Positions 12,734-60,297 of a stretch of DNA of 64,000 nucleotides are shown here, piece after piece (within the stretch, counting starts at the first letter, position 1; each line of letters opens with the position of its first letter). This DNA is from an uncultured Gammaproteobacteria bacterium (GTDB lineage: Bacteria; Patescibacteriota; Microgenomatia; Daviesbacterales; UBA10151): assembly GCA_964551605.1 (NCBI GenBank), contig CAZKCV010000004.1, forward strand, positions 7,331-71,330. The letters are read 5' to 3'. The notes beneath the pieces were generated by a model. It did no database searches and was not told the origin of the DNA. It worked only from the letters and a program-made list of their open reading frames with translations. The translations under genes and the position numbers were made by a program.

Positions 12734-13822
12734 ATGATTGGCAAATTAATTTTATCAGATGGAACTGAATTTATAGGAGAGGGATTTGGTTTTCCCATTT
12801 CCACCTCAGGGGAGGTGGTTTTTAATACCGGCATGGTGGGTTACCCGGAATCTTTAACAGATCCGTCATATTTTGGCCAAATTTTGGTGTTAACTTATCC
12901 GCTGCAGGGAAACTACGGTGTGCCGGGGAAAGATTTTTGGGAATCCAAAAAAATACAGGTTAAGGGCCTGATTGTCCAAAACTATATAGATCATCCGTCT
13001 CACTTTGAAAGTCAGAAGACCTTAGGGAAGTGGCTGAAAGCGGAAGGAATTCCGGCACTACAGGGGATTGATACCAGGTCTTTAACTACTAAACTGAGAG
13101 AGCATGGGGTGATGCTTGGTCGGATTGAAACAGGTTACAGGCAACAGGTTACAGGCAACAGTATCTATGATCCTAACGGTGAGAATATTCTTCCTTATGT
13201 TAGCTGTAAAAAGGTGGAAGTTTATGGGGAAGGCAAGAAAAATATAGTTTTAATTGATTGCGGGGCTAAGGAAAATATCATCAGGAGTTTAGTTAAGAGG
13301 GGAGTTAAAGTAACCAGAGTGCCATGGGATTTTAATCCTTTGAAATTTATGGATTCCCGCCTGCGCGGGAATGACAAGGTAGAGAAGCTGGATTTTGACG
13401 GGGTATTAGTTTCCAATGGCCCGGGAGATCCTAAACAAGCTAAAGAAACTATAGAAACTGTCAGACAACTGCTGGCAGAGAGTATTCCCACCTTTGGTAT
13501 CTGTTTAGGCAGTCAGATTCTATCTTTAGCAGCCGGAGGCGAAACCTACAAATTAAAATTTGGCCACCGGGGTCAAAATCAACCGGTGCAGGATGTAATT
13601 ACCAAAAAAGCGGTAATTACTTCTCAAAACCACGGGTTTGCTGTAGATACTAAATCTTTAAGTAAAGACTGGACAGAGTGGTTTGTAAACTTAAATGACG
13701 GTACCAATGAGGGGATCAGACATAAAAAGAAGCCGTTTATGGCAGCACAGTTTCACCCGGAGGCCAACCCGGGTCCGACAGAGGGCGGCTATTTGTTTGA
13801 TGAATTTTTGGAATATGTCTAA
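12734..13822 (+). CDS. carA: Carbamoyl-phosphate synthase small (glutaminase) subunit
   Basis: N-terminus MIGKLILSDGT.., GATase catalytic triad region (ICLGSQ, HGF..); start moved to the ATG at 12734. Confidence 0.85.
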   Translation: MIGKLILSDGTEFIGEGFGFPISTSGEVVFNTGMVGYPESLTDPSYFGQILVLTYPLQGNYGVPGKDFWESKKIQVKGLIVQNYIDHPSHFESQKTLGKWLKAEGIPALQGIDTRSLTTKLREHGVMLGRIETGYRQQVTGNSIYDPNGENILPYVSCKKVEVYGEGKKNIVLIDCGAKENIIRSLVKRGVKVTRVPWDFNPLKFMDSRLRGNDKVEKLDFDGVLVSNGPGDPKQAKETIETVRQLLAESIPTFGICLGSQILSLAAGGETYKLKFGHRGQNQPVQDVITKKAVITSQNHGFAVDTKSLSKDWTEWFVNLNDGTNEGIRHKKKPFMAAQFHPEANPGPTEGGYLFDEFLEYV

Positions 13823-17030: not shown

Positions 17031-17062
17031 CGTAGAATTTTTGCGGGAAATGTGCAAGAATA

Positions 17063-17130
17063 GGGGAAAGGGTGAAGGGTCAAGGGTGAAGTATTTATTT
17101 ACTTTTCCCTTTACGCTTTCCCCTTAACCC
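17063..17130. repeat. G-rich heptad repeat pair (family A): GGGGAAAGGGTGAAGGGTCAAGGGTGAAG, then a C-rich complement of the same heptad family (not an exact reverse complement)
   Basis: Four G3 tracts with 3-4-nt loops (a G-quadruplex-type motif) followed 12 nt later by the C-rich complement; lies between carB and the Fic gene. Confidence 0.5.
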
Positions 17131-17137
17131 TAACTTT

Positions 17138-18214
17138 ATGTTTATCCCCAAATACTCTATCACCAATAAAATTCTCAAAGATATCGGTACAGTTGAAGCA
17201 GCCCGGGAAGTGATTATGAATGCGCCTCTGGTACCGGCCTGGGAGGCCAAATTCCGCAAAGAGGCTATGGAGCGGACTGTCCATCACGGTACCCACCTGG
17301 AGGGTAATCCTCTATCACCCGAAGAAGTCAAGGATGTCTTGGAAGGGGAAGAAATAATTGCCCGGGACCGGGATGTCCAGGAGATTATCAATTACAGAAA
17401 TGTCTTAAAATTCATTGACGGCATTCACAGTCAGATTGGCTCTTCCGGCAGTTACAGCTTTACCATTGAAACTATACTGGAGATGCACAGGTTAACTACT
17501 GACAAAATTTTAGCGCCGGAATCTTCCGGCCAATTTAGAATTAGGCAGGTAGTGATCAAGAATACCAAAACCGGCCAGATTTCCTATACTCCGCCGCCGG
17601 CAGTGGAAGTGCCGTATTTGGTGGAAGATTTGGTCAATTGGATCAATTCCGATGAAGGCAGACAGGTCCATCCAATCATCAAGGCCGGGATTATCCATTA
17701 TGAACTGGCTAGGATCCATCCTTTTGTAGACGGTAACGGCCGGGTGGCGAGAGCCGTGGCTACCTTGATTTTGTTTTTAGACGGTTATGACATCCGGAAG
17801 TTTTTCTCTTTTGAAGAATACTTTGATGAAAACCCGATGCAGTATTACTTAACACTACAAGCCGTATCAAACCAGCTCGTTCTGGATACTCATGAGCGTG
17901 ATTTAACACCGTGGCTGGAATACTTTACGGAAGGGGTAGCTATTGAGCTAAACCGGGTGAAGGAAAAAGTACAGCGTATTTCGGTTGATGCCAGGATCAA
18001 GGATAAATTAGGCAAGCAACTGATGTTAAATGAGCGGCAAATGTTGATTATGGAATATATTCATCGGCACAAAGGCTTGTCTAATAAAGAGTTCCGTAAG
18101 ATTTTTCCGGATCATTCTGATGATACGGTTCTTAGAGAACTAAAATTCCTCCGCCAAAAAGGCCTGGTTAAAAAATCCGGCGGCACCAAAAAAGCGGTGT
18201 ATGTCTTAAAGTAA
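17138..18214 (+). CDS. Fic family protein (adenylyltransferase-type) with a C-terminal wHTH
   Basis: HPFVDGNGRVAR matches the Fic motif HPFx[DE]GNGR. Confidence 0.8.
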   Translation: MFIPKYSITNKILKDIGTVEAAREVIMNAPLVPAWEAKFRKEAMERTVHHGTHLEGNPLSPEEVKDVLEGEEIIARDRDVQEIINYRNVLKFIDGIHSQIGSSGSYSFTIETILEMHRLTTDKILAPESSGQFRIRQVVIKNTKTGQISYTPPPAVEVPYLVEDLVNWINSDEGRQVHPIIKAGIIHYELARIHPFVDGNGRVARAVATLILFLDGYDIRKFFSFEEYFDENPMQYYLTLQAVSNQLVLDTHERDLTPWLEYFTEGVAIELNRVKEKVQRISVDARIKDKLGKQLMLNERQMLIMEYIHRHKGLSNKEFRKIFPDHSDDTVLRELKFLRQKGLVKKSGGTKKAVYVLK

Positions 18215-20107: not shown

Positions 20108-21886
20108 ATGTTATTTTCTAAACTTGCACAGTATTTTGAAAAGTTGGAACAAACTTCCTCCCGTTTGGCTTTAATTGATATCTTGGCAGAATTGTTTGCA
20201 GAGGTGAATTTCAATGAGATTGGGCATGTGGCTTATTTAATTCAAGGCCGGGTAGCCCCGTTTTTTGAGCCCTTAGAAATAGGCATGAGCGAGAAGCTGG
20301 TAGCACACTCTATTGCCCGGGCTTATGAAGCGGAAAGAGCAGAAGTCTTAAAAGAGTACGGTAAAGTTGGGGATCTGGGGATAGTGGCTGAACGTCATTC
20401 TGGTAAGCGAAGCGCATCCAGAATCGATTCTGGACAAGTCCTTCGATCCCGAGGTCCTCAGGACCAAGGGGCCAGAATGACAGTTAATGAAGTTTTTGAA
20501 ACCTTAAGAGGGATAGCTAAGACAAGCGGTGAGGGCACAGTAGAAAAAAAGGTCTCTGCTTTAGCCGGGCTGCTTAAAAAGATGGATGATTTATCTGCCA
20601 AACACTTAGTCAGGATTCCTTTAGGGGTTTCCAGGTTAGGGGTAGGGGATCCGACTATTTTAGATGCTTTTGCCAAATTAAAACTGGGAGACAAAAGTAA
20701 AAGGAAGAGACTGGAAGGAGCATATAACCGGACTTCCGATCTAGGTTTAATCGGAGAAACTTTATGGAAAGGGGGGCTTCCCGGGGTAGAAAAACTAAAT
20801 GTGACAGTAGGCAGGCCAATCAGATCCCAGCTGGCAGAGCGGCTGCCGACTGCTGAAAAAGTGATTGAAAAGCTGGGAATGGTAAATTCTCAAAGGAAAT
20901 TGGATGGTTTCCGGGTTCAAGTGCACAAAGATGGGGACAGTGTCAGGCTATTTTCCCGGAATCTGGAAGAAACGACTCCGATGTTTCCGGAAATTGTGGA
21001 AGGGACCAAAAAACAAATTAAAGCCAAAACCGCCATTTTGGATTGCGAGGCAATTGGTTTTAACCCGGCTTCTGAGGAGTTTCTGCCTTTCCAGGAGACC
21101 ACCCAGCGGCGGCGAAAATACGGCATTGCAGAAATGGCAATAAAAATCCCTCTGAAGGCTTTTTGTTTTGATATTTTGTATAAGGATGGTAAATCTCTGA
21201 TTGAGTTGGAGCTTAAAGAAAGGTTGAAAATACTGGAGCAAACCATTAAGGCAGGGGATGTGTTGATGGTAGAAAAGGGGGAAATGGTAAGTGATGTCAA
21301 AAGATTACAAATCCTGCTTGATGATTCTATTTCCAAAGGGTTAGAGGGTTTGGTGGTTAAGCGGCCGGATTCAAAATATGAAGCCGGAGCCAGAAATTTT
21401 AATTGGGTAAAACTAAAAAGACATTCGGCAGGGGAGCTTAAAGATACGATTGATTGCGTGATTTTGGGATATATTTTCGGCCGGGGGAAGAGGGCGGAGT
21501 TTGGAGCAGGGTCTCTCTTGGTGGGAATTTATGACAGCGTGAAAGATGAGTTTGTGACAGTATCCAAGATTGGTACCGGTTTAACTGATGAGGAATGGAG
21601 GGAAATTCACAAGCGGGCGGATAAAATAAAGGTGGATCACAAACCGGCCAGGGTTAATTCAATTTTAAATCCCAGTGTTTGGATTAAGCCGGAGATTGTG
21701 ATTGAAGTTCTGGCAGACGAGATTACCCGGTCGCCAGTGCATACGGCCGGAAAAGAGGCTTCAGAGCCCGGCTATGCCCTCAGATTCCCCAGATTGGTTA
21801 AGTTCAGGGAAGCTGATAAGCAGGCAGAAGATGCTACGACTGTGAAAGAACTGGTCGAAATGTATAAGCTGCAGTATAAGAAATAA
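20108..21886 (+). CDS. lig: ATP-dependent DNA ligase (archaeal/eukaryotic type)
   Basis: KLDGFR adenylation motif I, EGLVVK motif and a DSKYEAG..W.KLK motif; 592 aa. Contains the in-frame palindromic insert GKRSASRIDSG. Confidence 0.8.
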   Translation: MLFSKLAQYFEKLEQTSSRLALIDILAELFAEVNFNEIGHVAYLIQGRVAPFFEPLEIGMSEKLVAHSIARAYEAERAEVLKEYGKVGDLGIVAERHSGKRSASRIDSGQVLRSRGPQDQGARMTVNEVFETLRGIAKTSGEGTVEKKVSALAGLLKKMDDLSAKHLVRIPLGVSRLGVGDPTILDAFAKLKLGDKSKRKRLEGAYNRTSDLGLIGETLWKGGLPGVEKLNVTVGRPIRSQLAERLPTAEKVIEKLGMVNSQRKLDGFRVQVHKDGDSVRLFSRNLEETTPMFPEIVEGTKKQIKAKTAILDCEAIGFNPASEEFLPFQETTQRRRKYGIAEMAIKIPLKAFCFDILYKDGKSLIELELKERLKILEQTIKAGDVLMVEKGEMVSDVKRLQILLDDSISKGLEGLVVKRPDSKYEAGARNFNWVKLKRHSAGELKDTIDCVILGYIFGRGKRAEFGAGSLLVGIYDSVKDEFVTVSKIGTGLTDEEWREIHKRADKIKVDHKPARVNSILNPSVWIKPEIVIEVLADEITRSPVHTAGKEASEPGYALRFPRLVKFREADKQAEDATTVKELVEMYKLQYKK

Positions 21887-22057: not shown

Positions 22058-23389
22058 ATGGGCTATGTAGCTGATTTGCATATCCACTCCAGGTACTCCC
22101 GGGCCTGCTCACCGCAATTAAATGTGCCTAATCTGGTGGAATGGGGGAAACTTAAAGGGATTGATGTTTTGGGGACAGGGGACTGCTTGCACCCTCTTTG
22201 GTTTACCGAGCTAAAAAGCCAATTAAAAGAAAATGAGACAGGATTTTTAAGTTACGATAAAGACCCTGCAGTTAAATTTGTTTTGACAGTGGAAGTGGCC
22301 TCGATTTATTCGCATAAAGGGGCAGTCCGCAGGATCCATAATGTGATTATGCTGTCTTCGTTTGAATCAGTGGAGAAGTTACAAAAGGTCTTATTGGCCA
22401 GGCGGGCCAATCTTTCCTCTGACGGCCGGCCGATTGTAGGGATTCCCTCTAAAGAATTGCTCAGGATGTGCCTGGAAATAGATAAAAATGTGATCTTTAT
22501 GCCGGCCCATGCCTGGACGCCCTGGTTTGGCATTTTTGGTTCCCAATCAGGCTATGACAGCCTGCAGGATTGCTTTGAAGATTTAACAGAATATATTTAT
22601 GGTGTTGAAACCGGATTAAGCTCTGACCCGGCCATGAATTGGCGGATTAAGGAATTGGATAACCGCTCAATTATCTCTTGCTCTGATGCCCATTCTTTGC
22701 CTAATTTAGGCAGGGAGGCAACGGTTTTTGGGGGAAGTTTGGAAGATGGGTACGAAAGTTTATGGAAAGCTATTTCAAACAAGATTGCCACGTCGCCTTC
22801 GGCTCCTCGCAATGACGGAGTAGTGGGCACAATTGAGTTTTATCCGGAAGAGGGTAAATATCACTACACCGGCCACCGCAGTTGTAATGTGAAGTATTCG
22901 CCGGAAGATACAAAGGCTAAGGGAACTAAATGTCCGGTTTGCGGCAGGGGATTAACAGTGGGAGTAATGGAAAGAGTAGAAGAGATCGCTTCGCGATCGA
23001 GTGCAGAGTTAAGAGTTAAGAATGTGGAAGGAATGATAAAGAGCGACGAATTTTCTGACAGAGCAGGGTACAAAATGTTAGTGCCGCTTTTGCAGGTGAT
23101 TGCAGAAGCTTTGGGGACTGCCCCGACAACCCAAAAGGTTTTAACTGAATATAAAAAGTTAACAACTGCATTAGGCAGTGAAATTAAGATTTTAACTAAA
23201 GTTGATATTGGAGAGATTGCCAAAGTTTCCGGTTCAAGGGTGGCAGAAGGGGTAGATAAAGTGAGAAAGGGGGATTTGGTGATTGATCCTGGCTATGACG
23301 GGGTGTACGGGGTAGTAAAGATTTGGGATCATGGGAAGGAAACTGTCAAAGAGGCAGAGGAGGTTCCCCAGTTGGGGTTGTTTGATTAG
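22058..23389 (+). CDS. PHP-domain protein of the endonuclease Q-like (TIGR00375-like) family with a C-terminal Zn ribbon
   Basis: N-terminus ADLHIHSRYS..GTGD (PHP metal-binding) and C..CPVCGRG; 443 aa. Confidence 0.5.
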   Translation: MGYVADLHIHSRYSRACSPQLNVPNLVEWGKLKGIDVLGTGDCLHPLWFTELKSQLKENETGFLSYDKDPAVKFVLTVEVASIYSHKGAVRRIHNVIMLSSFESVEKLQKVLLARRANLSSDGRPIVGIPSKELLRMCLEIDKNVIFMPAHAWTPWFGIFGSQSGYDSLQDCFEDLTEYIYGVETGLSSDPAMNWRIKELDNRSIISCSDAHSLPNLGREATVFGGSLEDGYESLWKAISNKIATSPSAPRNDGVVGTIEFYPEEGKYHYTGHRSCNVKYSPEDTKAKGTKCPVCGRGLTVGVMERVEEIASRSSAELRVKNVEGMIKSDEFSDRAGYKMLVPLLQVIAEALGTAPTTQKVLTEYKKLTTALGSEIKILTKVDIGEIAKVSGSRVAEGVDKVRKGDLVIDPGYDGVYGVVKIWDHGKETVKEAEEVPQLGLFD

Positions 23390-24957: not shown

Positions 24958-25544
24958 AATTGATAGTCGGGCTGGGAAATCCGGGAGATAAGCGAAGCTT
25001 GCGATCTGGCGATCTTAAATATGCCGGTACCAGGCATAATTTAGGGTTTGCTGTGGTGGACAAGTTAGGGGAAAGGGTTAAGAGGGAAGGGGGAAGCTGG
25101 AGAAATGAAGAAAAATTTAAGTCTGAGATTTTAGACTTTACCCTTAACGCTTCCCGCTTTACCCTTGTTAAGCCACAGACTTATATGAACAATTCCGGCA
25201 TGGCTGTTAAGTTGCTGGCTAATTATTATAAAATCGCACCGGAAGATATCATTATTATTCATGATGAGCTGGATTTGCCTTTAGGAAAAATTAAGGTTAG
25301 GAAGGGTGGGGCAGCGGCCGGACACCATGGAGTGGAATCAATTATTGCGTCTTTGGGAACAGATCAATTTTTAAGAGTGAGATTAGGTATTGGCCCGGCA
25401 GTCGGAATAGTGGAAAAATTTGTCCTGGAACCTTTCGGCTCAAAAGAAAAACCTGCAGTTAAACATCTGATCAAGCAGGCACTAAAAGCTATTGATTTAC
25501 TTTTGGAAAAAGGTTTAGAAAAAGCCCAAAATCAATATAACTGA
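24954..25544 (+). CDS. pth: Peptidyl-tRNA hydrolase
   Basis: LIVGLGNPG..Y..TRHN and HDELDLP motifs. The CDS carries a family-B palindrome (24989-25020) and a family-A G-rich inverted pair (25068-25167) in frame. Confidence 0.85.
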   Translation: MKLIVGLGNPGDKRSLRSGDLKYAGTRHNLGFAVVDKLGERVKREGGSWRNEEKFKSEILDFTLNASRFTLVKPQTYMNNSGMAVKLLANYYKIAPEDIIIIHDELDLPLGKIKVRKGGAAAGHHGVESIIASLGTDQFLRVRLGIGPAVGIVEKFVLEPFGSKEKPAVKHLIKQALKAIDLLLEKGLEKAQNQYN

Positions 25545-31928: not shown

Positions 31929-32596
31929 GTAAAACAGTCATACATAATGAATCAGGAGAAGCTAAATTTGGGGAGCAGGATCATCTGCAGTTGGCTCGGA
32001 CAGTCAGTTTTTCTGCTTTAATTTTTGAACTGCTGTCAGAAAAATCTCCCACAAAAGAGGAGCTTAAGCTTTTTGATTTAATGCTTAATTTATCAATTGA
32101 TCACGGCCCGGATGCTCCGTCAGCAGCTGCTACCATTCAGGCAGCCAAAGAAGGTAAAGGCTTTGGTGAAGCAGTGGGAGAAGGAATTGCCCGGATAAAC
32201 GAGACTCATGGCGGGGCGATAGAACCATTGATGGAGATTTTGTATAGGCAACAGGAAACAGGCATCAGGATACAGGATTTGGTGAAGGAGTATATAGAAC
32301 AGGATAAAAAGATTCCGGGGTTAGGGCATAGATTGTATAAAGACAAAGACCCCCGGACTGAGATAATTTTTCAAACTGCCGGTAAGTTAAATATCGGGGA
32401 AGAATATATGCAAATTATCAAAGAAATCAGGGATGAATTTGAAAAACAGTCCGGAAAAAGTCTGGTGATAAATATTGACGGAGCGATAGCAGCAGTGTTG
32501 TGTGGTTTTGGCTGGCCAAGTAAATTAGGGAAAGCTGTATTCATTATTGCCCGGACTCCGGGTCTATGCGGCCACTTTCTGAACACTAAATCTTAG
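31925..32596 (+). CDS. Citrate synthase-like small protein (citryl-CoA lyase / ATP-citrate lyase C-domain-like)
   Basis: GLGHRLYKDKDPR resembles the citrate synthase GFGHRVYK His motif; 223 aa. Confidence 0.45.
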   Translation: MSKTVIHNESGEAKFGEQDHLQLARTVSFSALIFELLSEKSPTKEELKLFDLMLNLSIDHGPDAPSAAATIQAAKEGKGFGEAVGEGIARINETHGGAIEPLMEILYRQQETGIRIQDLVKEYIEQDKKIPGLGHRLYKDKDPRTEIIFQTAGKLNIGEEYMQIIKEIRDEFEKQSGKSLVINIDGAIAAVLCGFGWPSKLGKAVFIIARTPGLCGHFLNTKS

Positions 32597-34679: not shown

Positions 34680-35851
34680 GAAAAGTTCAAAGTGATTTTC
34701 CAATACTTAATAAAAAAAGCAGAAAGCTTGTTTATTTGGATTCTGCTGCAACTTCTTTAAAACCAAAACAAGTGATTAAGTCTGTGACTGATTTTTATGA
34801 GAACTACTCAGCTAATGTGCATCGGGGTATATATCAGGAATCGGAAGAAGCGACAGAAAACTATGAAGGCGTCAGGGATAAAGTGGCTAAGTTAATAAAT
34901 TCAGACAGCAGTGAGGTGATTTTTACTAAAAATGCCACTGAAGCCATTAATCTGGTGGCTAAAACATGGGAAAGCGTAAAGCGTAAAGGGGAAAGGGGAA
35001 AGAAAATTTTAACTACAGTGATGGAGCATCACAGTAATTTAATTCCCTGGCAAAAGCTATTAGGTTCAAAATTAGTTTTCTTAGATATCAATAATAACGG
35101 AGAATTAGATTTATCTGATTTGGAAAATCAGCTAAAAGGAGTTTCTTTAGTAGCAGTTGCCCATGTGTCTAATGTTTTAGGAACCATTAATCCGGTAGAA
35201 AAGATTATTAAAGCAGCTCATGAGGATGGAGCTTTAGTCTTGATTGACGGCGCCCAGGCAGCCGGACATATGAGAGTGGATATTAAAAAATTAGGCTGTG
35301 ATTTTTATGTGTTTTCCGGCCATAAAATGTTAGGTCCAAGCGGGGTAGGGGTACTATGGATGAGAAAGGAAATTGCAGAGAGTCTGCCGCCATTTTTAAC
35401 CGGCGGGGGGATGGTGGGGCAGGACACACCATATAAGTTTGAAGCAGGTACCCCCAATATAGAAGGGGTAATCGGTTTGGGAGCAGCTATAGATTATTTA
35501 CGAAATGTAGGGATGGATAAAATCAGGGAGCATGAAAAAACATTAACTGAATATGCTCTGAAGAAGTTTTCCCGGGTAAGAGGTCTGACTGTATATGGCC
35601 CTTTGGATATAAATAAACGGGGAGGAGTAATTGCTTTTAATATTGAGGGTATTCACCCTCATGATCTGGCCAGTTTACTGGATAATGACGGTATTGCCAT
35701 CCGGGCCGGGCATCATTGCGCTATGCCATTGCATGAGAGATTGGGAATCAAAGCCTCTGCCCGGATCAGCTTTTATATCTATAACAGTATTAGAGACATA
35801 GACAGGTTGGTTGTTAGCCTGCAAAAGATCAAGCGCTTACTTAAAGTATAA
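34676..35851 (+). CDS. sufS: Cysteine desulfurase SufS
   Basis: PLP-Lys motif SGHKMLGPSG and class V aminotransferase fold. Contains an in-frame family-A G-rich insert (34968-35002, encoding KRKGERGKK). Confidence 0.85.
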   Translation: MRKVQSDFPILNKKSRKLVYLDSAATSLKPKQVIKSVTDFYENYSANVHRGIYQESEEATENYEGVRDKVAKLINSDSSEVIFTKNATEAINLVAKTWESVKRKGERGKKILTTVMEHHSNLIPWQKLLGSKLVFLDINNNGELDLSDLENQLKGVSLVAVAHVSNVLGTINPVEKIIKAAHEDGALVLIDGAQAAGHMRVDIKKLGCDFYVFSGHKMLGPSGVGVLWMRKEIAESLPPFLTGGGMVGQDTPYKFEAGTPNIEGVIGLGAAIDYLRNVGMDKIREHEKTLTEYALKKFSRVRGLTVYGPLDINKRGGVIAFNIEGIHPHDLASLLDNDGIAIRAGHHCAMPLHERLGIKASARISFYIYNSIRDIDRLVVSLQKIKRLLKV

Positions 35852-43018: not shown

Positions 43019-43053
43019 AATGTAAAATGTAAAATGTAAAATTTAAAATTTAA
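43019..43053. repeat. Heptamer tandem repeat (AATGTAA)x3 (AATTTAA)x2
   Basis: Direct 7-nt periodicity in the intergenic region, followed by a family-B-like palindrome agcttgcgatctaaagatcttaa. Confidence 0.4.
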
Positions 43054-43105
43054 TTGTAAGCTGAGCTTGCGATCTAAAGATCTTAAATTGTACATTTGTA
43101 AATTG

Positions 43106-44257
43106 TTAATTTTGTAGTATGTGTACTACAACCGTGGCTCCGGTGCCTCCCACATTTTGGGTCAGGCCGATATTTGCATCTTTCACCTGTCGGCTGCCGG
43201 CATTTTTGCGCAGCTGTTCCGTAATTTCAATGATCTGTTTAACTCCGGTGGCGCCGACCGGATGCCCGCAGGCTTTCAAGCCGCCGGAGGTATTAACAGG
43301 AAGTTTTCCCCCTAATCTGGTATGGCCTTTGGTGATAAACTTGCCTCCTTCTCCTTCGGGACAAAAACCTAAATCTTCCATGGCCATAATTTCGGCTATA
43401 GTAAAGCAGTCATGAACCTCAGAGACTTTAATGTCTTTGATCTCTGCTCCGGCTTGTTTTAAAGCAAGCTTAGCTGCCAGCTGGGTAGCTTTTAATTCTG
43501 TTAAGCTGGATCTCTGCGCTAAGTCAATGGTATCCGAAGCCACAGCGCTGCCGGTAATATACACCTGCCTGCCGGCAGGCAGGCCCCTTGACGAGTCATC
43601 CCCGGAAAGTATAACTGCAGCGGCACCATCAGTAATAGGGGAGGAATCAAAAAGTGTAATCGGGTAAGAAATTAAACTACTGCTTAAAACTTTTTCGGCT
43701 GTTATCTCATACGGATAGTGGGCCTTTTTATTCAAAGAAGCATGGTAGTGATTTTTTACTGAGACATGGGCCAGATGTTCCCGGGTGGTGCCGTATTTTT
43801 GCATATGGGCCTGGGCCATTAATGCATACAGGGCGGGGAAAGTTAAGCCGGCTTTTCGCTCTTTAGAAGAGCTGGCCCCCATTAAAGCCCAGGTGATTTG
43901 ACTTGATGGGGCATCAGTCATTTTTTCCGCTCCCACTACCAGGACATTTTTATATGTCCCGGCTAAAATGCCCTGGATGGCTAAATGGACGGCCAGTCCT
44001 CCTGAGGCACAGGCACCTTCAATCCTAAAGGAGGCGCAGTTAAGTCCTAAAGAAGAGCTGATGACCGGTCCCAGGTGATCCTGACCGGCAATTTTACCAA
44101 TTAACATATTGCCGACAAAAACGGCATCGATTGTATTTTTATCAATTCCTGAATCTTTGATAGCATCAAGAGATGCTTCTAGCCCCAAATCAAGTAATGA
44201 TTTGTCCCAGAGTTCACCGAATTTTGTTAAACCTACTCCAGCTACCTTAATACGCAT
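43106..44257 (-). CDS. Acetyl-CoA C-acetyltransferase (archaeal-type thiolase)
   Basis: Thiolase fold with the catalytic Cys region ..GACASGG.. and a C-terminal GH/CG active site GGLKACGHPVGATG. Confidence 0.85.
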   Translation of the reverse strand: MRIKVAGVGLTKFGELWDKSLLDLGLEASLDAIKDSGIDKNTIDAVFVGNMLIGKIAGQDHLGPVISSSLGLNCASFRIEGACASGGLAVHLAIQGILAGTYKNVLVVGAEKMTDAPSSQITWALMGASSSKERKAGLTFPALYALMAQAHMQKYGTTREHLAHVSVKNHYHASLNKKAHYPYEITAEKVLSSSLISYPITLFDSSPITDGAAAVILSGDDSSRGLPAGRQVYITGSAVASDTIDLAQRSSLTELKATQLAAKLALKQAGAEIKDIKVSEVHDCFTIAEIMAMEDLGFCPEGEGGKFITKGHTRLGGKLPVNTSGGLKACGHPVGATGVKQIIEITEQLRKNAGSRQVKDANIGLTQNVGGTGATVVVHILQN

Positions 44258-49493: not shown

Positions 49494-50294
49494 TTACTGA
49501 ACCTCTGACCAACGTTGAAGGGTATCGGCAAATAAATCCCTTAAAATCACCACATATTTCGGCTGGTGGACTATCTTTTCCGCAGCCACTGTATTATCAG
49601 TCAGGCTGCGGCAGAAAACTATTTTACCCGGGCTTAGACTGATTAAACTGCCATAAATAGTTAAAGTGTTGGCTACAGTGGAATTAGTAGTACAAGGATA
49701 ACCGGCAGTATAAATTTTATCTGAAGAAATGATCACCGAATATATTTGAGTCACAGTTTGAGTGATACTAACGTAGCCCTTAACGACAAAGACTATGCCG
49801 GAGCTTGCGTCTCCGAAATTACTGTTAAAGGTTAAATCTCCGTCTACAAAGATAACAGCAGCGGTTTTGGAGGGCCCACCTAGAGGGGAATTAATATCTA
49901 CATTTCCATTAACTAATACAATGTCATAACTGTTTAATAGGGACCTTAAAGTGCCTTGGTTGGCGGTGGCAGTTGATGTTTTAGCGGCTTTAGATTGGGT
50001 GTAATAGAGTGATTTTAGATCTTCATAAGTAGGGATTTTATAGGAGACAAAAGCAGCTTTTAAGTCAATCACGCAATTACCGGTGGTATTGCTGAATTTA
50101 GTAGAAACTGTCGGAGCACTAATTAAGCCGCCGGCCCGGGGATTGGTGGATTGGGTTGGGCAGGCATTTTGGGCATAAACGGTTGGTAGTATAAATAAAG
50201 CTACGACAATCAAATAAGCTGCCAAAATAACTGTACCCTGTAACCTAAGACCTTTAGGTCGCAAGCTTCGCTTATACCCTGTACCCTTTATCAT
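49494..50294 (-). CDS. Secreted/membrane-anchored hypothetical protein
   Basis: N-terminal hydrophobic segment after the family-B-encoded KRSLRPKGLRL; Thr/Ser/Asn-rich body. Confidence 0.4.
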   Translation of the reverse strand: MIKGTGYKRSLRPKGLRLQGTVILAAYLIVVALFILPTVYAQNACPTQSTNPRAGGLISAPTVSTKFSNTTGNCVIDLKAAFVSYKIPTYEDLKSLYYTQSKAAKTSTATANQGTLRSLLNSYDIVLVNGNVDINSPLGGPSKTAAVIFVDGDLTFNSNFGDASSGIVFVVKGYVSITQTVTQIYSVIISSDKIYTAGYPCTTNSTVANTLTIYGSLISLSPGKIVFCRSLTDNTVAAEKIVHQPKYVVILRDLFADTLQRWSEVQ

Positions 50295-51898
50295 TATGGT
50301 CCTCCCGGAGCCTGGATAGCTTTATTGGAGTGGACATCACCGCCCTCTGTTTGTACCCAAGGGGTGATGCAGGCCCTGAGGTTACAAGTTTGGGTTTCTC
50401 TCAAACCCCTGGTGCCGTCTGCTTTCAGGCACTGCAGCCCGCCGTAGGCCGGAACCGGACTAATGCAATTTCTGGTTTTGAAGCCAGGCCCGCAGGTTTC
50501 AGTACACATAGAATTCCAAACCGGCCCGTCCGGAAAGTCCCAGCCGCCATCAACAGGGCAACGCGGAATGTTACAAGTCACAGTCTGGGAAGAAGGGCCG
50601 GAACAGGGGGCGCCGTTGTTTGAAGGCGGAGTGCAGGTTCTGGTCCTGGTGGTTGTATCGGAACCGTCCCCGCAGGCCGGACAGGCACTCCAGGGGCTCC
50701 AGGCAGACCAGACACCATCCGTAGGACACAGCGGGAGTTTGATAATAGATACTGCGCTATGCCAGCCAAAATTGCCGTTAAACCAGTATGTGCTCCAGTT
50801 GGAGGAAGCATCATAGCCGAATAAACGGACGTAATAAGTATGGTCGGGTTGAATAGTCAGGGGGCCGGAAACTCCTGAGGCGCCATTAAAGCCGATAGGG
50901 GCATCCGTGTAAGTAGCGCCCGCAGGAACTCCTTTATTATAAAAAGTGGCAAAGTTAGGGTCTTCGCTGATATCCACCCAGTTGATTTGGCGTGCCGGAT
51001 TGGAGGTGGGGAAATAGATCCTGGCCAGGACAGAATTAGTGGCATTTGAAGTTAAGCAGGTGCCATAGTTAGTCAGAGTGTAATCATACTGGATATTCGG
51101 CGCCGGCATTTGGTATCTAAACCCGGAGGCGCAGGTATTGGCAAGCTCTGTTTCTACACTTTGGTTGTTCCAGTTAGTAGTCCTTTGTATAAGGCTATAT
51201 TTAGTGCCAATGGTATAGTAAGGGTTATTAAAGGCAATACTTTGGCTTGAGTATCCAGTTGACCAATTCCGGGTACATAATCCTGAGGATCCCCATCGGG
51301 TATCACAGACTGTCCAGTCCCAGTTGTTCCAGTTATCATGAGCCTTGACATAGAAGTTAGTTACTGTCCAGGGATAAACCCAATCATAAAGATTGATTGT
51401 GCAACGGTTATCCCACCAGTTCATCCAGCAGTACCCGCTGCTGGACCAGATATAGGCTTTATTCCAAGTGTAAGCGCCGCATTGGGGAGGGGCCGGAGGA
51501 GGCTGCGGAGGGTTATTCAGGGTAATATTAATGGAGGAACAACTACCGGTGTTGCCGGCGGCATTAGGCGAGACAATAGTGGCGGTTATATGATGAGGAG
51601 GAGTACCGGTAGATTGTCCGGTTGTATTCCAAGTTACACTGGGCTTGATAGCAGGTACAGTGTCCCCCGGGGCGGGCCAAATCCTGGTATTATCAACTAA
51701 AATAGCGGTTACTCCTTGAGTATTAGTGGTATCCACCGTAATAATAATTGATTCACCGATAGTGGCACTTGTTTTGGCAGTGATATTACAGGTGGGGGTA
51801 CTAAAGTCAGTATTCCAGTCAGCCAGGGCCGGGGAGATAAAGTATAGAGTATAAAGTATAAAGTATAGTGGGAAATAAAGCAGCAGGCGGCAGGGCAT
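50294..51898 (-). CDS. Secreted Trp/Cys-rich protein with two thrombospondin type-1-like repeats
   Basis: Signal-peptide-like N-terminus; WSAWSPWSACPACGDGSDTTTRTRTC and a second CxxTCGPG..R.C repeat; GC-rich relative to its surroundings. Confidence 0.5.
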   Translation of the reverse strand: MPCRLLLYFPLYFILYTLYFISPALADWNTDFSTPTCNITAKTSATIGESIIITVDTTNTQGVTAILVDNTRIWPAPGDTVPAIKPSVTWNTTGQSTGTPPHHITATIVSPNAAGNTGSCSSINITLNNPPQPPPAPPQCGAYTWNKAYIWSSSGYCWMNWWDNRCTINLYDWVYPWTVTNFYVKAHDNWNNWDWTVCDTRWGSSGLCTRNWSTGYSSQSIAFNNPYYTIGTKYSLIQRTTNWNNQSVETELANTCASGFRYQMPAPNIQYDYTLTNYGTCLTSNATNSVLARIYFPTSNPARQINWVDISEDPNFATFYNKGVPAGATYTDAPIGFNGASGVSGPLTIQPDHTYYVRLFGYDASSNWSTYWFNGNFGWHSAVSIIKLPLCPTDGVWSAWSPWSACPACGDGSDTTTRTRTCTPPSNNGAPCSGPSSQTVTCNIPRCPVDGGWDFPDGPVWNSMCTETCGPGFKTRNCISPVPAYGGLQCLKADGTRGLRETQTCNLRACITPWVQTEGGDVHSNKAIQAPGGP

Positions 51899-51958
51899 GA
51901 CTTATTATTGGCATATTAGAAAATGTTTTGCAAGGCGACAAGGTGGTATAATAAATTT

Positions 51959-52255
51959 ATGACACAATCACAAAAACGTCTGGAAAAAATCAAAACCAAA
52001 ATCCTTCCCATACTCAAACAGGCAGGAGTTAAAAGAAGCAGCCTGTTTGGTTCTTATGTCAGGGGAGAGGAAACAAAAGATAGTGATATTGATATTTTAG
52101 TAGAACTTCCTAAAGGAAAAAGTCTGTTTGATTTTGTAGACTTACAATTAAAATTAGAGGAAATGTTAAACAGGAAGGTTGATTTGGTGGAATACTCCAC
52201 AATTAAACCCCGCCTCAAACCTTATATTTTGGATAACCAGCTGCAGATCCTATGA
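51959..52255 (+). CDS. Nucleotidyltransferase antitoxin (MNT family)
   Basis: GSYVRGEETKDSDIDILV minimal nucleotidyltransferase motif. Confidence 0.65.
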   Translation: MTQSQKRLEKIKTKILPILKQAGVKRSSLFGSYVRGEETKDSDIDILVELPKGKSLFDFVDLQLKLEEMLNRKVDLVEYSTIKPRLKPYILDNQLQIL

Positions 52256-52608
52256 AAAAGCGGGATATTGGTGTTTTTCTTGAGGATATTTTAGAGAGCA
52301 TTGACAGGATAGAAGAATACACCAAAGATATCCCGGAAGAAGGATTTTACAGTACAGTTTCACTCCAAGATGCAGTCATCAGACGCTTTGAGATTATCGG
52401 AGAGGCAGTTAAACATATTCCCCAGAAAGTGAAGGACAAATACTCAGAGGTTCCATGGAAAGAAATCTCAGGCACCAGAGATATATTAATTCATGAATAT
52501 TTTGGAGTAAATTTAGAAAGAATCTGGAAAACCATCCAAAAAGATGTCCTGCCCTTTAAAAAGCAACTTCAACAGATGCTCCGCGATATTGATGAACAGG
52601 CTTCGTAA
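52252..52608 (+). CDS. HepT-like (DUF86) toxin
   Basis: R-x4-HxY-like RDILIHEYF motif; overlaps the MNT gene by 4 nt. Confidence 0.65.
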   Translation: MKKRDIGVFLEDILESIDRIEEYTKDIPEEGFYSTVSLQDAVIRRFEIIGEAVKHIPQKVKDKYSEVPWKEISGTRDILIHEYFGVNLERIWKTIQKDVLPFKKQLQQMLRDIDEQAS

Positions 52609-57000: not shown

Positions 57001-57165
57001 ATGGTCAAGTTGAATGCAAAGCAATTAAGGAAGGGTAAAGGGGAAAGCGTAAAGGGTGAAGTAAGAAAGAACAACATCTATATTATCCTGGATAATGTTT
57101 TAGATACCTATAATATTGGTTCTATCTTCAGGCTGGCAGATGCAACTTTGAAGATTTTACATTGA
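57001..57165 (+). pseudogene. Duplicated 5' fragment of the TrmH-family methyltransferase gene (48 codons + 6 novel codons)
   Basis: 57001-57143 matches 59764-59906. A 53-bp core is identical; a 42-nt G-rich heptad block differs. Confidence 0.5.
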
Positions 57166-57219
57166 CATATTGGTTAAGAATGAGGTATCTTGCAAATATT
57201 CCTGCCTGATAGAGGTTGA

Positions 57220-58551
57220 ATGACAAAACAAGAGATTTCTATTTCGGATCATCAAGAGCCTAATTTATTGAGATTACGCGGTGGAGTTTTTCTTGTTGAA
57301 GGATCTAAACGGGCAGCTCTATATGATACAAACAGCGGTAATGTCTATTCGCTTAACCAAGAAGCAACTCAAACAGTAAAAGGAGAAGCTAATTATCCCG
57401 AATTTTGGTCAAAACTTGCTTCTATGCAACTGGTTGTTGCCAGACAAGATTCCGCAACTGAGTTGATCATTTCAGAAGTTGAAATTCCGAAACCAACCTT
57501 GCAATTTGCATGGTTAGAACTTACTGAATTGTGTAATGAACGTTGTCTTCACTGCTATGGCAGTTTTTCTCCAGATAAGCAAGATAAAATTGCTAGATCT
57601 CTTGATCATACAGAATGGAAAGATACTATACAATCGTTGGCAGAAAATGGCTGTAAACAAATTCAATTTATCGGCGGAGAACCTTTTAGGTACCGCGGTG
57701 AGACAAAAACACAAACTGTTTTAGATTTGGCTGACTTTGCTAAAGAGCAGGATTTTAGTTTAGTTGAGATATTTACTAATGGAACGTTGATCTCGGCAGA
57801 AATTGTTAAAAGAATAAAAGATCTTGAAGTTTCAGTTGCTCTTTCGCTCTATTCATCAAACGCTGCGATTCATGACAATATAACACAAACCCCTGGAAGT
57901 TACAGAAAAACTCTTAGGGCAATTAATATGTTGAGAGAAGCAGATGTTTCGCTGAGAGCAGCTATTATTGTAATGAAACAAAATGAAGATACTATTGAAC
58001 AAACATTAGAGATGGCTCAAAATTTAGGCTTGAACGTTAGAGTCCCTGATGCAGTGCGCCCCAGTGGGAGGGCACAAGAAACAGATATAATTCCAAGTGT
58101 CGAAATGCTCATAAAATATGGGCTTATCACAAAACCGAATTTCTCAACCGATCCAGTTAGCTTTCAGCGAAACCACCTGTATCACAGTTGTTTAGCCGGT
58201 AAGGTTGCAATTACTAGGGATAGACAAGTCATCCCTTGTATTTTCTCAAGAGATAACACATTAGGTAATCTTAGAGATCAAAAATTGGCAGATGTACTTG
58301 AGTCTCCAGTTCTAAAAGAAACTTGGGAATTAACCAAAGATAAAGTTTTGGTTTGTAGAGACTGCGAATACCGTTACGCTTGTTCTGACTGCCGTCCGCT
58401 TGCTGAAGGTTCAAATTGCGGAAAAGGCTATTCAAGCGCTCCCTTTCCAAGATGTACCTATAATCCGTATACTGGTGAATGGGGATCCGGTGTGTGGAGG
58501 ATGAACAGTCAGGGAGAAATTGTTTATGAAGAATTGCCAATACAAAAGTAA
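57220..58551 (+). CDS. Radical SAM / SPASM-domain peptide-modifying enzyme with an N-terminal RRE-like extension
   Basis: ELCNERCLHCYG CX3CX2C motif; a C-terminal Cys-rich twitch/SPASM-like region (C..CRDCEYRYACSDCRP..CGKG..CTY); ~90 aa precede the rSAM core. Confidence 0.8.
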   Translation: MTKQEISISDHQEPNLLRLRGGVFLVEGSKRAALYDTNSGNVYSLNQEATQTVKGEANYPEFWSKLASMQLVVARQDSATELIISEVEIPKPTLQFAWLELTELCNERCLHCYGSFSPDKQDKIARSLDHTEWKDTIQSLAENGCKQIQFIGGEPFRYRGETKTQTVLDLADFAKEQDFSLVEIFTNGTLISAEIVKRIKDLEVSVALSLYSSNAAIHDNITQTPGSYRKTLRAINMLREADVSLRAAIIVMKQNEDTIEQTLEMAQNLGLNVRVPDAVRPSGRAQETDIIPSVEMLIKYGLITKPNFSTDPVSFQRNHLYHSCLAGKVAITRDRQVIPCIFSRDNTLGNLRDQKLADVLESPVLKETWELTKDKVLVCRDCEYRYACSDCRPLAEGSNCGKGYSSAPFPRCTYNPYTGEWGSGVWRMNSQGEIVYEELPIQK

Positions 58552-58572
58552 AAAGAAGGGAGGTGAAGAAAT

Positions 58573-58782
58573 ATAAAAGAAAATACCGAAATTTTAGCTC
58601 AACAAGCGGCTAGTAGGCAGGTTGGTTCTGGACCCACAATTGAATTGGTAACACCTAAAGCTGGAATGGGCATGGAACCAAGTGGAGTTTGTCCTCCAGA
58701 TTGTGCTCCAGGTGCAATTTGTCCTCCAAATTGCTTACCGAATTGTCAGCCGTCGTGTCCGCCGACAATATTTCCAAGATAG
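58573..58782 (+). CDS. Cys-rich candidate RiPP precursor peptide (core ..VCPPDCAPGAICPPNCLPNCQPSCPPTIFPR)
   Basis: Frame open from 58567 to TAG 58780-58782. A strong SD GGGAGGTGA lies directly after the rSAM stop. The codon at the canonical start position is ATA (58573); alternative starts are TTG 58645 and ATG 58666. Confidence 0.4.
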   Translation: MKENTEILAQQAASRQVGSGPTIELVTPKAGMGMEPSGVCPPDCAPGAICPPNCLPNCQPSCPPTIFPR

Positions 58783-58817
58783 CCTGAATCTTCCAAGCAG
58801 CCTAAACTACCGCCGAA

Positions 58818-59729
58818 CTAAGGCGGAATATGTAGCGTATTGGGGGTGGGGGCAATCAGGAATTGTGGCCAGGTTTTAGGGTATAGAGTCATGATAATTT
58901 TGCCGAAAACAAAGGCGAAATCGTGAGGGTATTTGCGTGGTTCTAATACAGAATCTACTTGGTCGAGATTATTTTCTTTTTCGACCTTTAGTAGGTATCC
59001 CATTGTATTGGCAGCAAAGATATCAAAGTTTCGTTTATGAGTCGGCCAAAAAATCATACTTGCCTGATATTCACAACAGAAAGCAAAGAGCTCGGTTATT
59101 CCTTCAACGGCGGGAAACCGAATTGGCAATTTTGCAAATTTTTCGCTCTTGGAGTGAGATGAATTTTTTACTTCGGAGTAGAGCTGTTTAACGGTTTTCA
59201 ACAGCAGGAGATTTTCCTTCTTATTTGAGTAATACCAAAGTTTGTGTTGGTGCCAGTAAGCGTGTCCGAATTCGTGGACAATAGTAGCCATGTAACTCTC
59301 GCGGGTGGTATAGGGGTTGTTTTTACGTCTTTTCATTTTCTTTTGGAGTTCAGTAAAAGGTATTAATAATCCTCCGGAGATAAAAGAAGTTATCAACTCA
59401 TTAGTTTTTAGTTTTGAGAGAAGTAACCGAGTTAGTTTCGGTAGTTTTAGACCTGCTCTCCACCAGTATTGATAATCATCGGAGATTTTAAGTTTATGGA
59501 GAATTTTGTAGGCAAAATATTGTTTCAGGCTGCATTTAATAGAGGTAAGCTTGGGAAATTTTGCCTGTGACCAAAGATAAATATTTTCGCAGTCATAACT
59601 GACAACAATTACCTTTTCAATTAACTTTTTGTTCTTAAACACAAAATTTAGTTTGGGATGCCAAACTGAATTTATTCCTTCTTCAATTGCCTCGAAGTCT
59701 TCTTTTACCGCTTTGTAGTTTTCAAACAT
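58818..59729 (-). CDS. Putative zinc metallopeptidase (HExxH)
   Basis: ATIVHEFGHAYWHQH motif; 303 aa; convergent with the precursor ORF. Confidence 0.5.
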   Translation of the reverse strand: MFENYKAVKEDFEAIEEGINSVWHPKLNFVFKNKKLIEKVIVVSYDCENIYLWSQAKFPKLTSIKCSLKQYFAYKILHKLKISDDYQYWWRAGLKLPKLTRLLLSKLKTNELITSFISGGLLIPFTELQKKMKRRKNNPYTTRESYMATIVHEFGHAYWHQHKLWYYSNKKENLLLLKTVKQLYSEVKNSSHSKSEKFAKLPIRFPAVEGITELFAFCCEYQASMIFWPTHKRNFDIFAANTMGYLLKVEKENNLDQVDSVLEPRKYPHDFAFVFGKIIMTLYPKTWPQFLIAPTPNTLHIPP

Positions 59730-59763
59730 AACGCAATTTTACCATTAATGATAAAATCATGGC

Positions 59764-60297
59764 ATGGTAAAACTTAATGCAAAGCAATTGAGAAAGGGTA
59801 CAGGGTACAGGGTACAGGGTACAGTTAAGCGCAATGAGATCTATATTGTTTTGGATAATGTTTTAGATACCTATAATATTGGTTCTATCTTCAGGCTGGC
59901 AGATGCGGTGGCAGCCAAAAAGATTTACCTTTGCGGGGGAACAGAGACTCCGCCCAATCACCGGATTAAGAAAGCTTCCATTAATACCACCGAAGTAGTG
60001 GAGTGGGAGTACTTCGAAACAGCCCTGGAAGCAGTTTCAAGGGTAAAGCGTGAAGCGAAAAGGGTAAAGATAATAGCGATAGAACAGAGCCCTAAATCAA
60101 TCCAATATAATACTTTTGAGTATAAATTGCCCATATGTTTGGTGGTAGGGCATGAAAGTAACGGGGTAAGCAGGGAAGTTTTGGAAATTTCTGATGCCAT
60201 TGTTGAAATTCCCATGTTCGGGGTTAATATTTCTTTAAATGTTGTGGTTTCTTTAGGGATAGTATTGTATGAAGTTATTAAGAAGAGTGATAATTAA
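59764..60297 (+). CDS. TrmH/SpoU-family RNA 2'-O-methyltransferase
   Basis: SpoU motifs NIGSIFR...GTE and a C-terminal LNV..S; contains the (GGGTACA)x4 in-frame repeat. Confidence 0.7.
   Translation: MVKLNAKQLRKGTGYRVQGTVKRNEIYIVLDNVLDTYNIGSIFRLADAVAAKKIYLCGGTETPPNHRIKKASINTTEVVEWEYFETALEAVSRVKREAKRVKIIAIEQSPKSIQYNTFEYKLPICLVVGHESNGVSREVLEISDAIVEIPMFGVNISLNVVVSLGIVLYEVIKKSDN
59796..59824. repeat. (GGGTACA)x4 heptamer tandem repeat (family A variant; G4 motif) in frame in the trmH-like CDS
   Basis: Perfect 7-nt repeats. The duplicated fragment at 57033-57061 carries GGGTAAAGGGGAAAGCGTAAAGGGTGAAG at the same place. Confidence 0.6.

Follow-up and report, generated by a model that had tools for sequence, protein, structure and literature searches.

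Short heptad arrays that change units at fixed sites in a Daviesbacteria DNA segment

We analysed short tandem heptad arrays, among them a dispersed G-rich family with the consensus GGGKNAA, in a 64-kb stretch of contig CAZKCV010000004.1 (hereafter the window; G+C 42%). GGGKNAA is one flavour, and the commonest unit family in this genome, of a repeat class that is specific to a period of seven nucleotides. The arrays exceed what shuffled DNA yields, at period 7 specifically, keep a narrow length, occupy fixed positions in housekeeping genes (pth, trmH, sufS, carA and DNA ligase) at which their units turn over, covary where they form paired arms, replace native residues and harbour nested mini-palindromes. 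The explanation that we favour, with moderate confidence, is that they are lineage-wide DNA-level heptad cassettes of 4-6 units (~28-40 nt), copied or generated and then homogenised at permissive sites, and often complementary to an inverted partner. The copying mechanism, as well as any role of the resulting hairpins in the cell, is what we infer from these patterns.

The Pth, TrmH and SufS homologs assigned the window to Candidatus Daviesbacteria (Patescibacteria, or candidate phyla radiation, CPR); an exact look-up of the Pth of the window gave no recorded match. Its gene content is ordinary, with arginine and pyrimidine metabolism, Suf, pyruvate formate-lyase, an ATP-citrate-lyase-like set and the mevalonate pathway. 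A cyanobacterial origin, or HIP1, was rejected, the HIP1 site GCGATCGC being absent from the window and the homologs being those of Daviesbacteria. As relatives, we used syntenic loci reached via Pth (L001-L006 and L206-L208) together with 80 trmH loci from metagenomes, and 511 kb of related non-redundant DNA was scanned for arrays. L002 is ~87% identical to the window across aligned stretches; it is also identical to L003, so that comparing L002 with L003 carries no strain-level information. Between positions 13860 and 36655, the identity of the window to L002 is a mosaic that changes by segment from 72 to 94%, with the pth 5' region in a low-identity segment. This suggests recombination between Daviesbacteria lineages.

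G-rich blocks and the wider class of period-7 arrays

Eight blocks of G[G/C]GNNAA heptads occur in the window, seven with four units and one with five. A heptad weight-matrix scan gave 8 arrays as compared with 0.19 in Markov shuffles, and exact matches to four successive GSGNNAA units numbered 6 versus 0.00 in 100 dinucleotide-preserving shuffles. An earlier note on this DNA had described a dispersed family in both orientations, with in-frame copies inside pth, sufS and trmH, and this description stands, the family being non-random. Indeed, the seven blocks it listed are all present, to which we add an eighth, in trmH at 60041-60069. Six blocks are G-rich on the plus strand and two on the minus strand (17103 and 25137), each of the latter being the 3' arm of an inverted pair. 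Five of the eight are held by intact genes and one by a gene fragment, with G on the sense strand except in the pth partner arm.

One inverted pair occupies the spacer between carB, which ends at 17030, and fic, which starts at 17138. It consists of a G-rich arm at 17063-17091 (+; units GGGGAAA, GGGTGAA, GGGTCAA, GGGTGAA and a last G) and a partner arm, C-rich on the plus strand, at 17103-17130 (-; GGGTTAA, GGGGAAA, GCGTAAA, GGGAAAA), which has three G3 tracts. The other pair lies within pth, where arm 1 (25068-25097, +) codes GERVKREGGS and arm 2, its complement (25136-25167, -), codes FTLNASRFTL. The five-unit array is that of sufS (34967-35002, +), coding ESVKRKGERGK. A further array, at 57033-57061 (+), is in a truncated copy of the trmH 5' end (open reading frame, ORF, 57001-57165). 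In the full trmH gene, site 1 is a perfect GGGTACA x4 at 59796-59824 (+), coding GTGYRVQGTV in the N-terminal tail, ahead of the SpoU domain, and site 2 is the 60041-60069 block (+; GGGTAAA, GCGTGAA, GCGAAAA, GGGTAAA and a last G), coding RVKREAKRVK on a native helix of the fold.

The earlier note had held that every block fits the canonical G-quadruplex (G4) motif of four G3+ runs with loops of 1-7 nt. Only three do (17063, 25068 and 59796). The remaining five have 2-3 G3 runs each, because GCG stands for GGG, as it does in 9 of the 33 units when counted from the unit sequences. The blocks at 25137 and 60041 resemble each other in their GGG-GCG-GCG-GGG order, a likeness that was judged not significant given the constraints of the shared motif.

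The G-rich blocks are part of something broader. When periods 4-12 were compared in the window under one criterion, period 7 gave 7 arrays versus 0.1 in shuffles; at a looser threshold, period 6 showed a modest rise (7 versus 1.75). In the related DNA, period-7 arrays numbered 106 as compared with 1 in shuffles and period-6 arrays 20 as compared with 8, and periods 5 and 8-10 were not enriched. Enrichment beyond chance was found for the G-rich blocks in the window and for the period-7 arrays in the window and in its relatives. Among 101 arrays from relatives, 21 had four units, 62 had five, 17 had six and one had seven. GGG or CCC was present in the consensus unit of only 16 of the 101, leaving 85 without, and 63 were nearly A/T-only (at most 2 G/C per unit); the length range was equal for G-rich and A/T-only units. 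Most arrays (83/101) lay within ORFs, and at the stringency used their density outside trmH was ~7 per 100 kb. Since a strong excess is seen at period 7 alone and the other arrays of the window have unrelated units, the G-rich family is, in the window, the most common member of a heptad-specific phenomenon.

The unit families vary at a given position and recur at others. At the same positions in relatives, we found arrays of equal length made of GGKTACA, CAGTCGT/CAGCTAT, AGTGCAA, AGCGTNN or A/T-only units. Unrelated loci also share a vocabulary: AGTGCAA recurs in sufS (P0245), pth (L206) and trmH (L193), and CAGTCGT is common to an intergenic hairpin of L004 and to trmH. Beyond this lineage, a scan of one genome per species placed GSGNNAA x4 arrays at no fewer than 119 loci (at least that number) in many phyla, with no Daviesbacteria among the matches listed.

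Turnover at fixed positions and covariation of inverted arms

The two trmH sites best illustrate turnover in place. At site 1 (codons 11-20), the flanks are nearly invariant among orthologs and the array is mostly confined to the same 30 nt, yet the units range over GGGTACA x4, mixes of GGGGAAA and GGGTAAA, GGTTACA, CAGCTAT/CAGTCGT, GAAATAC, AAATTGA and others. Length is therefore kept and sequence is hypervariable, with peptides as different as KGKGERVKGK, SYQSSAISRQ and GNTKYEIRNTK. Array identity and flank identity are uncorrelated (r = 0.09). For example, 32 of the 33 array bases are the same in the window and in L133, whose flanks are 80% identical, and L132 and L134, which belong to different clades, carry an identical CAGCTAT/CAGTCGT array, the clade-mates of L134 having GGG-type arrays. 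Of the distinct orthologous sequences listed for site 1, 14 out of 44, as read by eye, have at least four G3 tracts. Phase variation was ruled out by the near-fixed unit number (4-6) and by ortholog length differences that come in multiples of 3 at this site.

Site 2 (codons 93-103) is likewise filled in most of the orthologs listed by a heptad array, of CAAATCT, AATTTAA, CGATTAA, AAGTTCA or GGGTAAA/GCGTGAA units, and one clade has no visible 7-nt period. The segment aligns to a native helix of solved TrmH. In the window and in L126-L205, the 7-nt DNA period, read in three phases, makes the peptide repeat every seven residues, with hydrophobic positions at i, i+3 and i+7 (I..L...I..L). This pattern fits the amphipathic helix that is native to the fold, and tolerance at this site may hence be limited to certain heptads.

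The array at 59796 and that of the truncated copy at 57033 differ at 7 of 29 positions, and the next ~65 nt are nearly identical, which bears out the earlier remark that this copy is hypervariable between the duplicates. The differences include the same A-to-C change in all four units of 59796 relative to 57033; such an identical change repeated beside nearly identical sequence is the signature of concerted change. The interval 57001-59763 comprises the 54-codon truncated trmH 5' copy (57001-57165), a radical SAM/SPASM gene (57220-58551) and an ORF of unknown function (58818-59729, -), followed by the full trmH. It has the look of inserted DNA in which the 5' end of trmH was duplicated or recombined.

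In pth, the two arms change unit family together. Five families were recognised in the arms of seven orthologs (GGGNNAA, GGTTACA, AAGTGCA, AGCGTNN and GTAGTTG-like), and the conserved coding sequence between the arms is 30-45 nt in the orthologs and ~38 nt in the window. Own and foreign arms were judged by duplex energies, as ungapped complementarity counts allowing G-T pairs did not separate them. The mean energy was -27.2 kcal/mol for an arm with its own partner versus -14.7 kcal/mol with arms of other families, and the own partner gave the best duplex in every one of the seven. When the family was inferred from the peptides of 111 orthologs, which are not phylogenetically independent, 46 pairs matched and 3 did not. 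About 20 of these 111 lacked both arms and ~18 had one only; moreover, an inverted partner within 150 nt was detectable for only 16 of the 101 arrays of the relatives. Pairing is thus a strong tendency and not a requirement.

At the carB-fic pair, the region 17055-17138 is predicted to fold at -37.9 kcal/mol (z = -5.1). Mismatches in the stems are regularly spaced. The whole 70-nt element is missing from L002, which is 88% identical over that stretch, and neither L001 nor L002 has a hairpin at this spot. At the equivalent intergenic spot, L004 carries a hairpin whose heptads are TCGTCAG/CTGAxAG and whose fold likewise has z = -5.1. No intrinsic terminator, terminator-like tail or promoter was found at the carB-fic hairpin. 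The earlier note had proposed that inverted pairs could form long hairpins or G4/i-motif structures: the long hairpins hold, and G4/i-motif does not as an organising idea. Non-G units occur in relatives at this spacer as well as at trmH site 2 and in pth.

Coding copies had been regarded as inserts. As a matter of fact, alignment to solved homologues indicated that coding arrays mostly replace native residues and do not add loops, the net gain being 0 to 4 residues. In pth, arm 1 adds a net 4 residues relative to solved Pth 7y52 and is missing in the 34-residue ortholog type, and arm 2 aligns without gaps to native residues of 7y52. In sufS, the native WGEVNIKKGS is present in most orthologs; of the others, two carry an AGTGCAA-type array and one a 39-residue palindromic insert. 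The sufS array itself adds 2 residues relative to its solved homologue. In the comparison with L002, the sequence on either side of the sufS array hardly differs, and a ~60-nt patch is rewritten with a net gain of 18 nt; this gain and the 70-nt carB-fic hairpin are the largest indels between the window and L002 in or beside conserved genes. One and the same unit family occurs in each of the three codon phases, which indicates that the repeat is a DNA feature tolerated by the proteins and not a selected peptide.

Tandem Repeats Finder listed the non-G arrays of the window (period 7, 4-5 units). In carA, the linker that joins the CPSase and GATase domains contains an AACAGGT/TACAGGC array (13129-13161, +), which codes ETGYRQQVTGNS and adds 4 residues relative to the solved homologue. 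An AGGCAAC/AGGAAAC array (32246-32277, +) codes RQQETGIRIQD in the citryl-CoA-lyase-like gene, with no net length change relative to its solved homologue. Between the OB-fold and thiolase genes lie AATGTAA x5 (43019-43053, +) and a second A/T-rich array of period 7/8 (43084-43116, +) whose fold is weak (z = -1.8). Finally, ATAAAGT x4.4 (51837-51867, -) codes the hydrophobic core of a signal peptide (LYFPLYFILYTLYFI). The host gene (50294-51898, -) encodes, in this CPR bacterium, a 534-residue protein bearing a thrombospondin type 1 (TSP_1) domain, and a nucleotidyltransferase/HepT-like toxin-antitoxin pair (51923-52608) adjoins the array.

Some arrays are themselves interrupted. Arrays at trmH site 1 are broken by small palindromes, namely CTCGCTTCGCGAAGCGAG in L130, CCCTTCGRCTKCGCTCAGGGCRAG in L144, L193 and L155, and others in L139 and L201. 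Such palindromic inserts measure 18-27 nt, those of the CCTGCCGGCA type coding LPAG(K/R), and they also occur inside arrays of Pth orthologs P0040, P0047 and P0059 and of TrmH orthologs P0147 and P0154. A 27-nt mini-element, TAAGCGAAGCTTGCGATCTGGCGATCT, lies in the window pth at 24989-25015 and is identical in the pth of L001, though the two genes are ~72% identical; it is missing from 21 of 24 aligned Pth orthologs. Its consensus is TAAGCRAAGCTTGCGATCTnnCGATCT, which in frame codes K[RQ]SLRSxDL. A second copy in the window (43057-43083) sits between the A/T-rich arrays of 43019-43053 and 43084-43116, and in the relatives copies lie in L001 (~10038), L004 (~8367), L153 and L201 (two).

Other small palindromic elements were noticed in the window. 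The DNA ligase gene (20108-21886) contains, at 20393-20481, an 89-nt composite palindromic in-frame insert, CGTCATTCTGG...CCAGAATGAC, with a nested element. The insert of L206 at this codon is the simple version; those of L001, L004 and L207 are different mini-palindromes of the CATCCTG... type, and in L002 the codon carries a CAGAGTT x6 heptad array. The codon thus appears to be a hot spot that different mini-elements share. The gene at 22058-23389 has a 33-nt in-frame insert, TTGCCACGTCGCCTTCGGCTCCTCGCAATGACG (22785-22817), which is missing from L002. A hairpin related to this insert, GATTGCC...GCAATGAC, lies in the intergenic segment 20055-20094 upstream of the ligase gene, and similar copies are present in L001, L134, L158 and L162. 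A perfect 16-nt palindrome, CCTGCCGGCAGGCAGG, lies in the coding region of the thiolase gene (43568-43583, -) and also in L164 and L168.

Weighing copying, mobility, stems and G-quadruplexes

Under the cassette explanation, arrays would arise at permissive spots such as domain linkers, N-terminal tails, surface helices, signal peptides and intergenic spacers. They would overwrite about the same length of native sequence, and in this proposal the equal length is why the reading frame survives. Homogenisation might then proceed by out-of-register copying, whether through slippage, template switching or gene conversion, and wholesale replacement by another unit family could follow. Inverted blocks would tend to remain complementary, so that a single strand, either mRNA or unwound DNA, could fold as a long, regularly mismatched hairpin. 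The potential to form G4 would be a by-product of one unit family. Shared units across loci, bounded length and joint switching of the arms together suggest more than simple slippage, perhaps an active mobile or gene-conversion process.

Several points weigh against this explanation. Plain slippage, one of the candidate copying processes, fails on the narrow length, on the shared vocabulary and on the joint switch of arms that leaves the intervening coding sequence in place; besides, its one-unit intermediates would be frameshifts in essential single-copy genes. Neither an enzyme nor a template came to light: among the ~55 ORFs of the window, there was no Pfam match to reverse transcriptase, transposase or Y1-transposase families. 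The covariation of the pth arms fits selection for a functional RNA or DNA stem equally well. GGG at a 7-nt spacing is kept in many trmH site 1 orthologs, where selection on G tracts is possible. Lastly, the relatives are a biased set, sampled via pth and trmH, and related sequences are not independent.

A possible, though doubtful, alternative is that the blocks are very small mobile elements. Following the copying proposed for cyanobacterial SDR elements, blocks of ~30 nt would be copied from masters by a trans-acting machinery, possibly via RNA, and the arrays would be landing pads or cargo. Such elements would account for unit families that recur across unrelated loci and across genomes, for the near-identical arrays in diverged backgrounds, for the sharply bounded length of the blocks and for the several sites that one family fills in the window and that are empty in L002. 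The mini-palindromes nested in arrays (L130, L139, L144, L193, L201), the 27-nt element shared without change by two diverged pth genes, and the single ligase codon that receives either different mini-elements or a heptad array point the same way. However, we saw no target-site duplications, clean element ends or candidate enzyme, and arrays take the place of sequence instead of adding to it. The trmH sites are filled in almost all orthologs, which looks like turnover in place, and inter-strain recombination, of which the mosaic identity of 72-94% speaks, could spread alleles without transposition.

We think it unlikely that the inverted blocks are functional stem-loops maintained by selection, that is, RNA or DNA signals for mRNA stability or processing, pausing or protein binding, with the heptad period reflecting a periodic binding partner. 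This possibility draws on the strong folds (z = -5.1 twice, with unrelated heptads at one intergenic spot), on the covariation of the pth arms over five families and on the regular spacing of the mismatches. A preprint also reports effects of heptamer repeats near starts on the expression of Nostoc repair genes (bioRxiv 10.1101/2022.06.06.494920). Yet, the proposal leaves aside the arrays that have no detectable partner nearby, which are all but 16 of the 101, as well as the Pth orthologs with no arm or a single one, and the carB-fic hairpin is missing from L001 and L002. Nor was there a terminator-like tail, or an Rfam family at gathering score in the window.

That the blocks, or a subset of them, act as G4/i-motif elements seems improbable to us. 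In this proposal, which was read from the sequence, four G3 tracts of the sense strand or of the mRNA would fold into an intramolecular G4, with an i-motif on the partner, that controls replication, transcription or translation, whence the need for four units. G4 formation is the one concrete prior idea for the four-unit preference, and the window with its relatives offers a natural test of it. Three blocks do fit the canonical motif, the window holds 5 such motifs versus 1.3 expected, and the five solo G-rich blocks all have their G strand as sense strand. In many trmH site 1 orthologs G.G.R..G recurs, with GGG every 7 nt and the other four bases varying, and four-unit G-rich heptamers comparable to these blocks form G4 in vitro (Rehm et al. 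2015, PMC4692102). However, five of the eight blocks fall short of four G3 tracts (2-3 each), non-G units of equal length fill the orthologous positions, and in inverted pairs the hairpin competes. The main argument against G4 is that the 85 arrays lacking GGG or CCC nevertheless have 4-6 units, so the length preference does not require G4. Collectively, A/T-only units of the same length, sequence swaps at fixed positions and joint switching of partners point to DNA-level copying or to a structure-based constraint, independent of G4.

Protein-level selection for flexible G/K/E/R-rich loops, with the DNA repeat as a side effect, is hardly credible: the coded peptides are of low complexity and in tolerant regions, and the trmH site 2 units do give the I..L...I..L pattern that fits the native helix, but the same DNA unit is read in all three phases, the peptides at trmH site 1 differ widely, arrays also lie between genes and in a pseudogene fragment, and a period of 7 nt is not a multiple of the codon.

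The cassette explanation has a bolder form, which we offer tentatively and consider rather unlikely to be right as it stands. Daviesbacteria, and perhaps many bacteria with heptamer repeats, might have an active templated process that writes 4-6 heptads (~30 nt) over DNA at preferred sites, keeps length and frame, draws on shared units and copies them onto a nearby inverted partner. If true, this would amount to a mobile or gene-conversion system of very small size that rewrites short stretches of housekeeping proteins, and the four-unit preference long noted for bacterial heptamer repeats would be explained without recourse to G-quadruplexes. Whatever the process, proteins of candidate phyla tolerate the rewriting of short segments, be they linkers, a helix or a signal peptide, and low-complexity peptide patches in these proteomes stem from DNA repeats, which is a warning for annotation. 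The pth stem, the two trmH sites and the carB-fic spacer provide experimental handles.

Known heptamer and palindromic systems

Heptanucleotide repeats have reportedly been known for decades, the cyanobacterial STRR repeats being attributed to Mazel and colleagues in 1990 (cited in PMC4692102), and SDR elements, said to have been reported by Elhai and colleagues in 2008 (cited in PMC5861425), are tiny elements nested in the heptamer arrays of Nostocaceae. The arrays described here have in common with STRR/SDR that one genome holds several heptamer unit families as short tandem arrays, and that mini-palindromes of ~20-27 nt are embedded in them. Moreover, three Nostoc loci (L013, L039 and L083) have a hairpin made of a GGGTAAA/GGGGAAA array, a loop and the inverse array, a design that is also found here. 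Unlike these systems, the present lineage belongs to Patescibacteria, so that the SDR system is at most an analogue, likened by arrangement. To our knowledge, occupancy of coding regions and conserved positions are not part of the STRR/SDR description. SDR elements are reported as confined to Nostocaceae (PMC5861425). We found no paper in the literature that joins heptameric repeats with Patescibacteria.

Three further comparisons concern repeats found in housekeeping genes, between genes or at contingency loci. Rickettsia palindromic elements (RPE) are selfish elements of ~100-150 bp that sit in frame in housekeeping genes at permissive sites. The blocks here differ in being 28-35 nt long with a heptad period, in overwriting residues where RPE add them, and in forming pairs that flank native coding sequence. 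REP/REPIN elements are short, imperfectly palindromic and dispersed, with inverted pairs, and they are extragenic and tied to a RAYT transposase (e.g. PMC3116915). In contrast, most copies here are genic, and no Y1 (RAYT) transposase was found among the ~55 ORFs of the 64-kb window. The simple sequence repeats of contingency loci resemble our arrays as tandem units, not a multiple of three, in coding sequence; here, however, unit number is nearly fixed, length differences are in frame and the hosts are housekeeping genes.

The TAACTGA repeats are heptamer direct repeats in few copies (2-6), very abundant and of patchy distribution across Beggiatoaceae, Cyanobacteria and Bacteroidetes (MacGregor 2015, PMC4679880). 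TAACTGA is one dominant unit, placed mostly just upstream of starts and with one indirect repeat, whereas the arrays here have many units, are mostly genic and include inverted pairs (16/101).

The closest counterparts to the G-rich blocks are the heptamers GGGAATC of Xanthomonas and GGGGA(C/T)T of Nostoc, which are dispersed, of unknown function, and in some cases inverted with the potential to form a stem-loop or G4 (Rehm et al. 2015, PMC4692102). Both sets have 7-nt units with a G3-4 tract, a preference for four units (seven of the eight blocks here), a dispersed distribution and some inverted copies. The consensus here is GGGKNAA, with GCG often in place of GGG, and it is accompanied by non-G arrays of the same architecture, which sets it apart. 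The Xanthomonas and Nostoc heptamers are over-represented in intergenic DNA and under-represented within coding regions as well as on the coding strand (PMC4692102), whereas most copies here lie in housekeeping genes with the G strand as sense strand. Bacterial heptanucleotide repeats are described as still unexplained (PMC4692102). What the Daviesbacteria arrays bring to a known but unexplained kind of repeat is their occupancy of conserved positions in housekeeping genes, and this in a candidate-phylum lineage.

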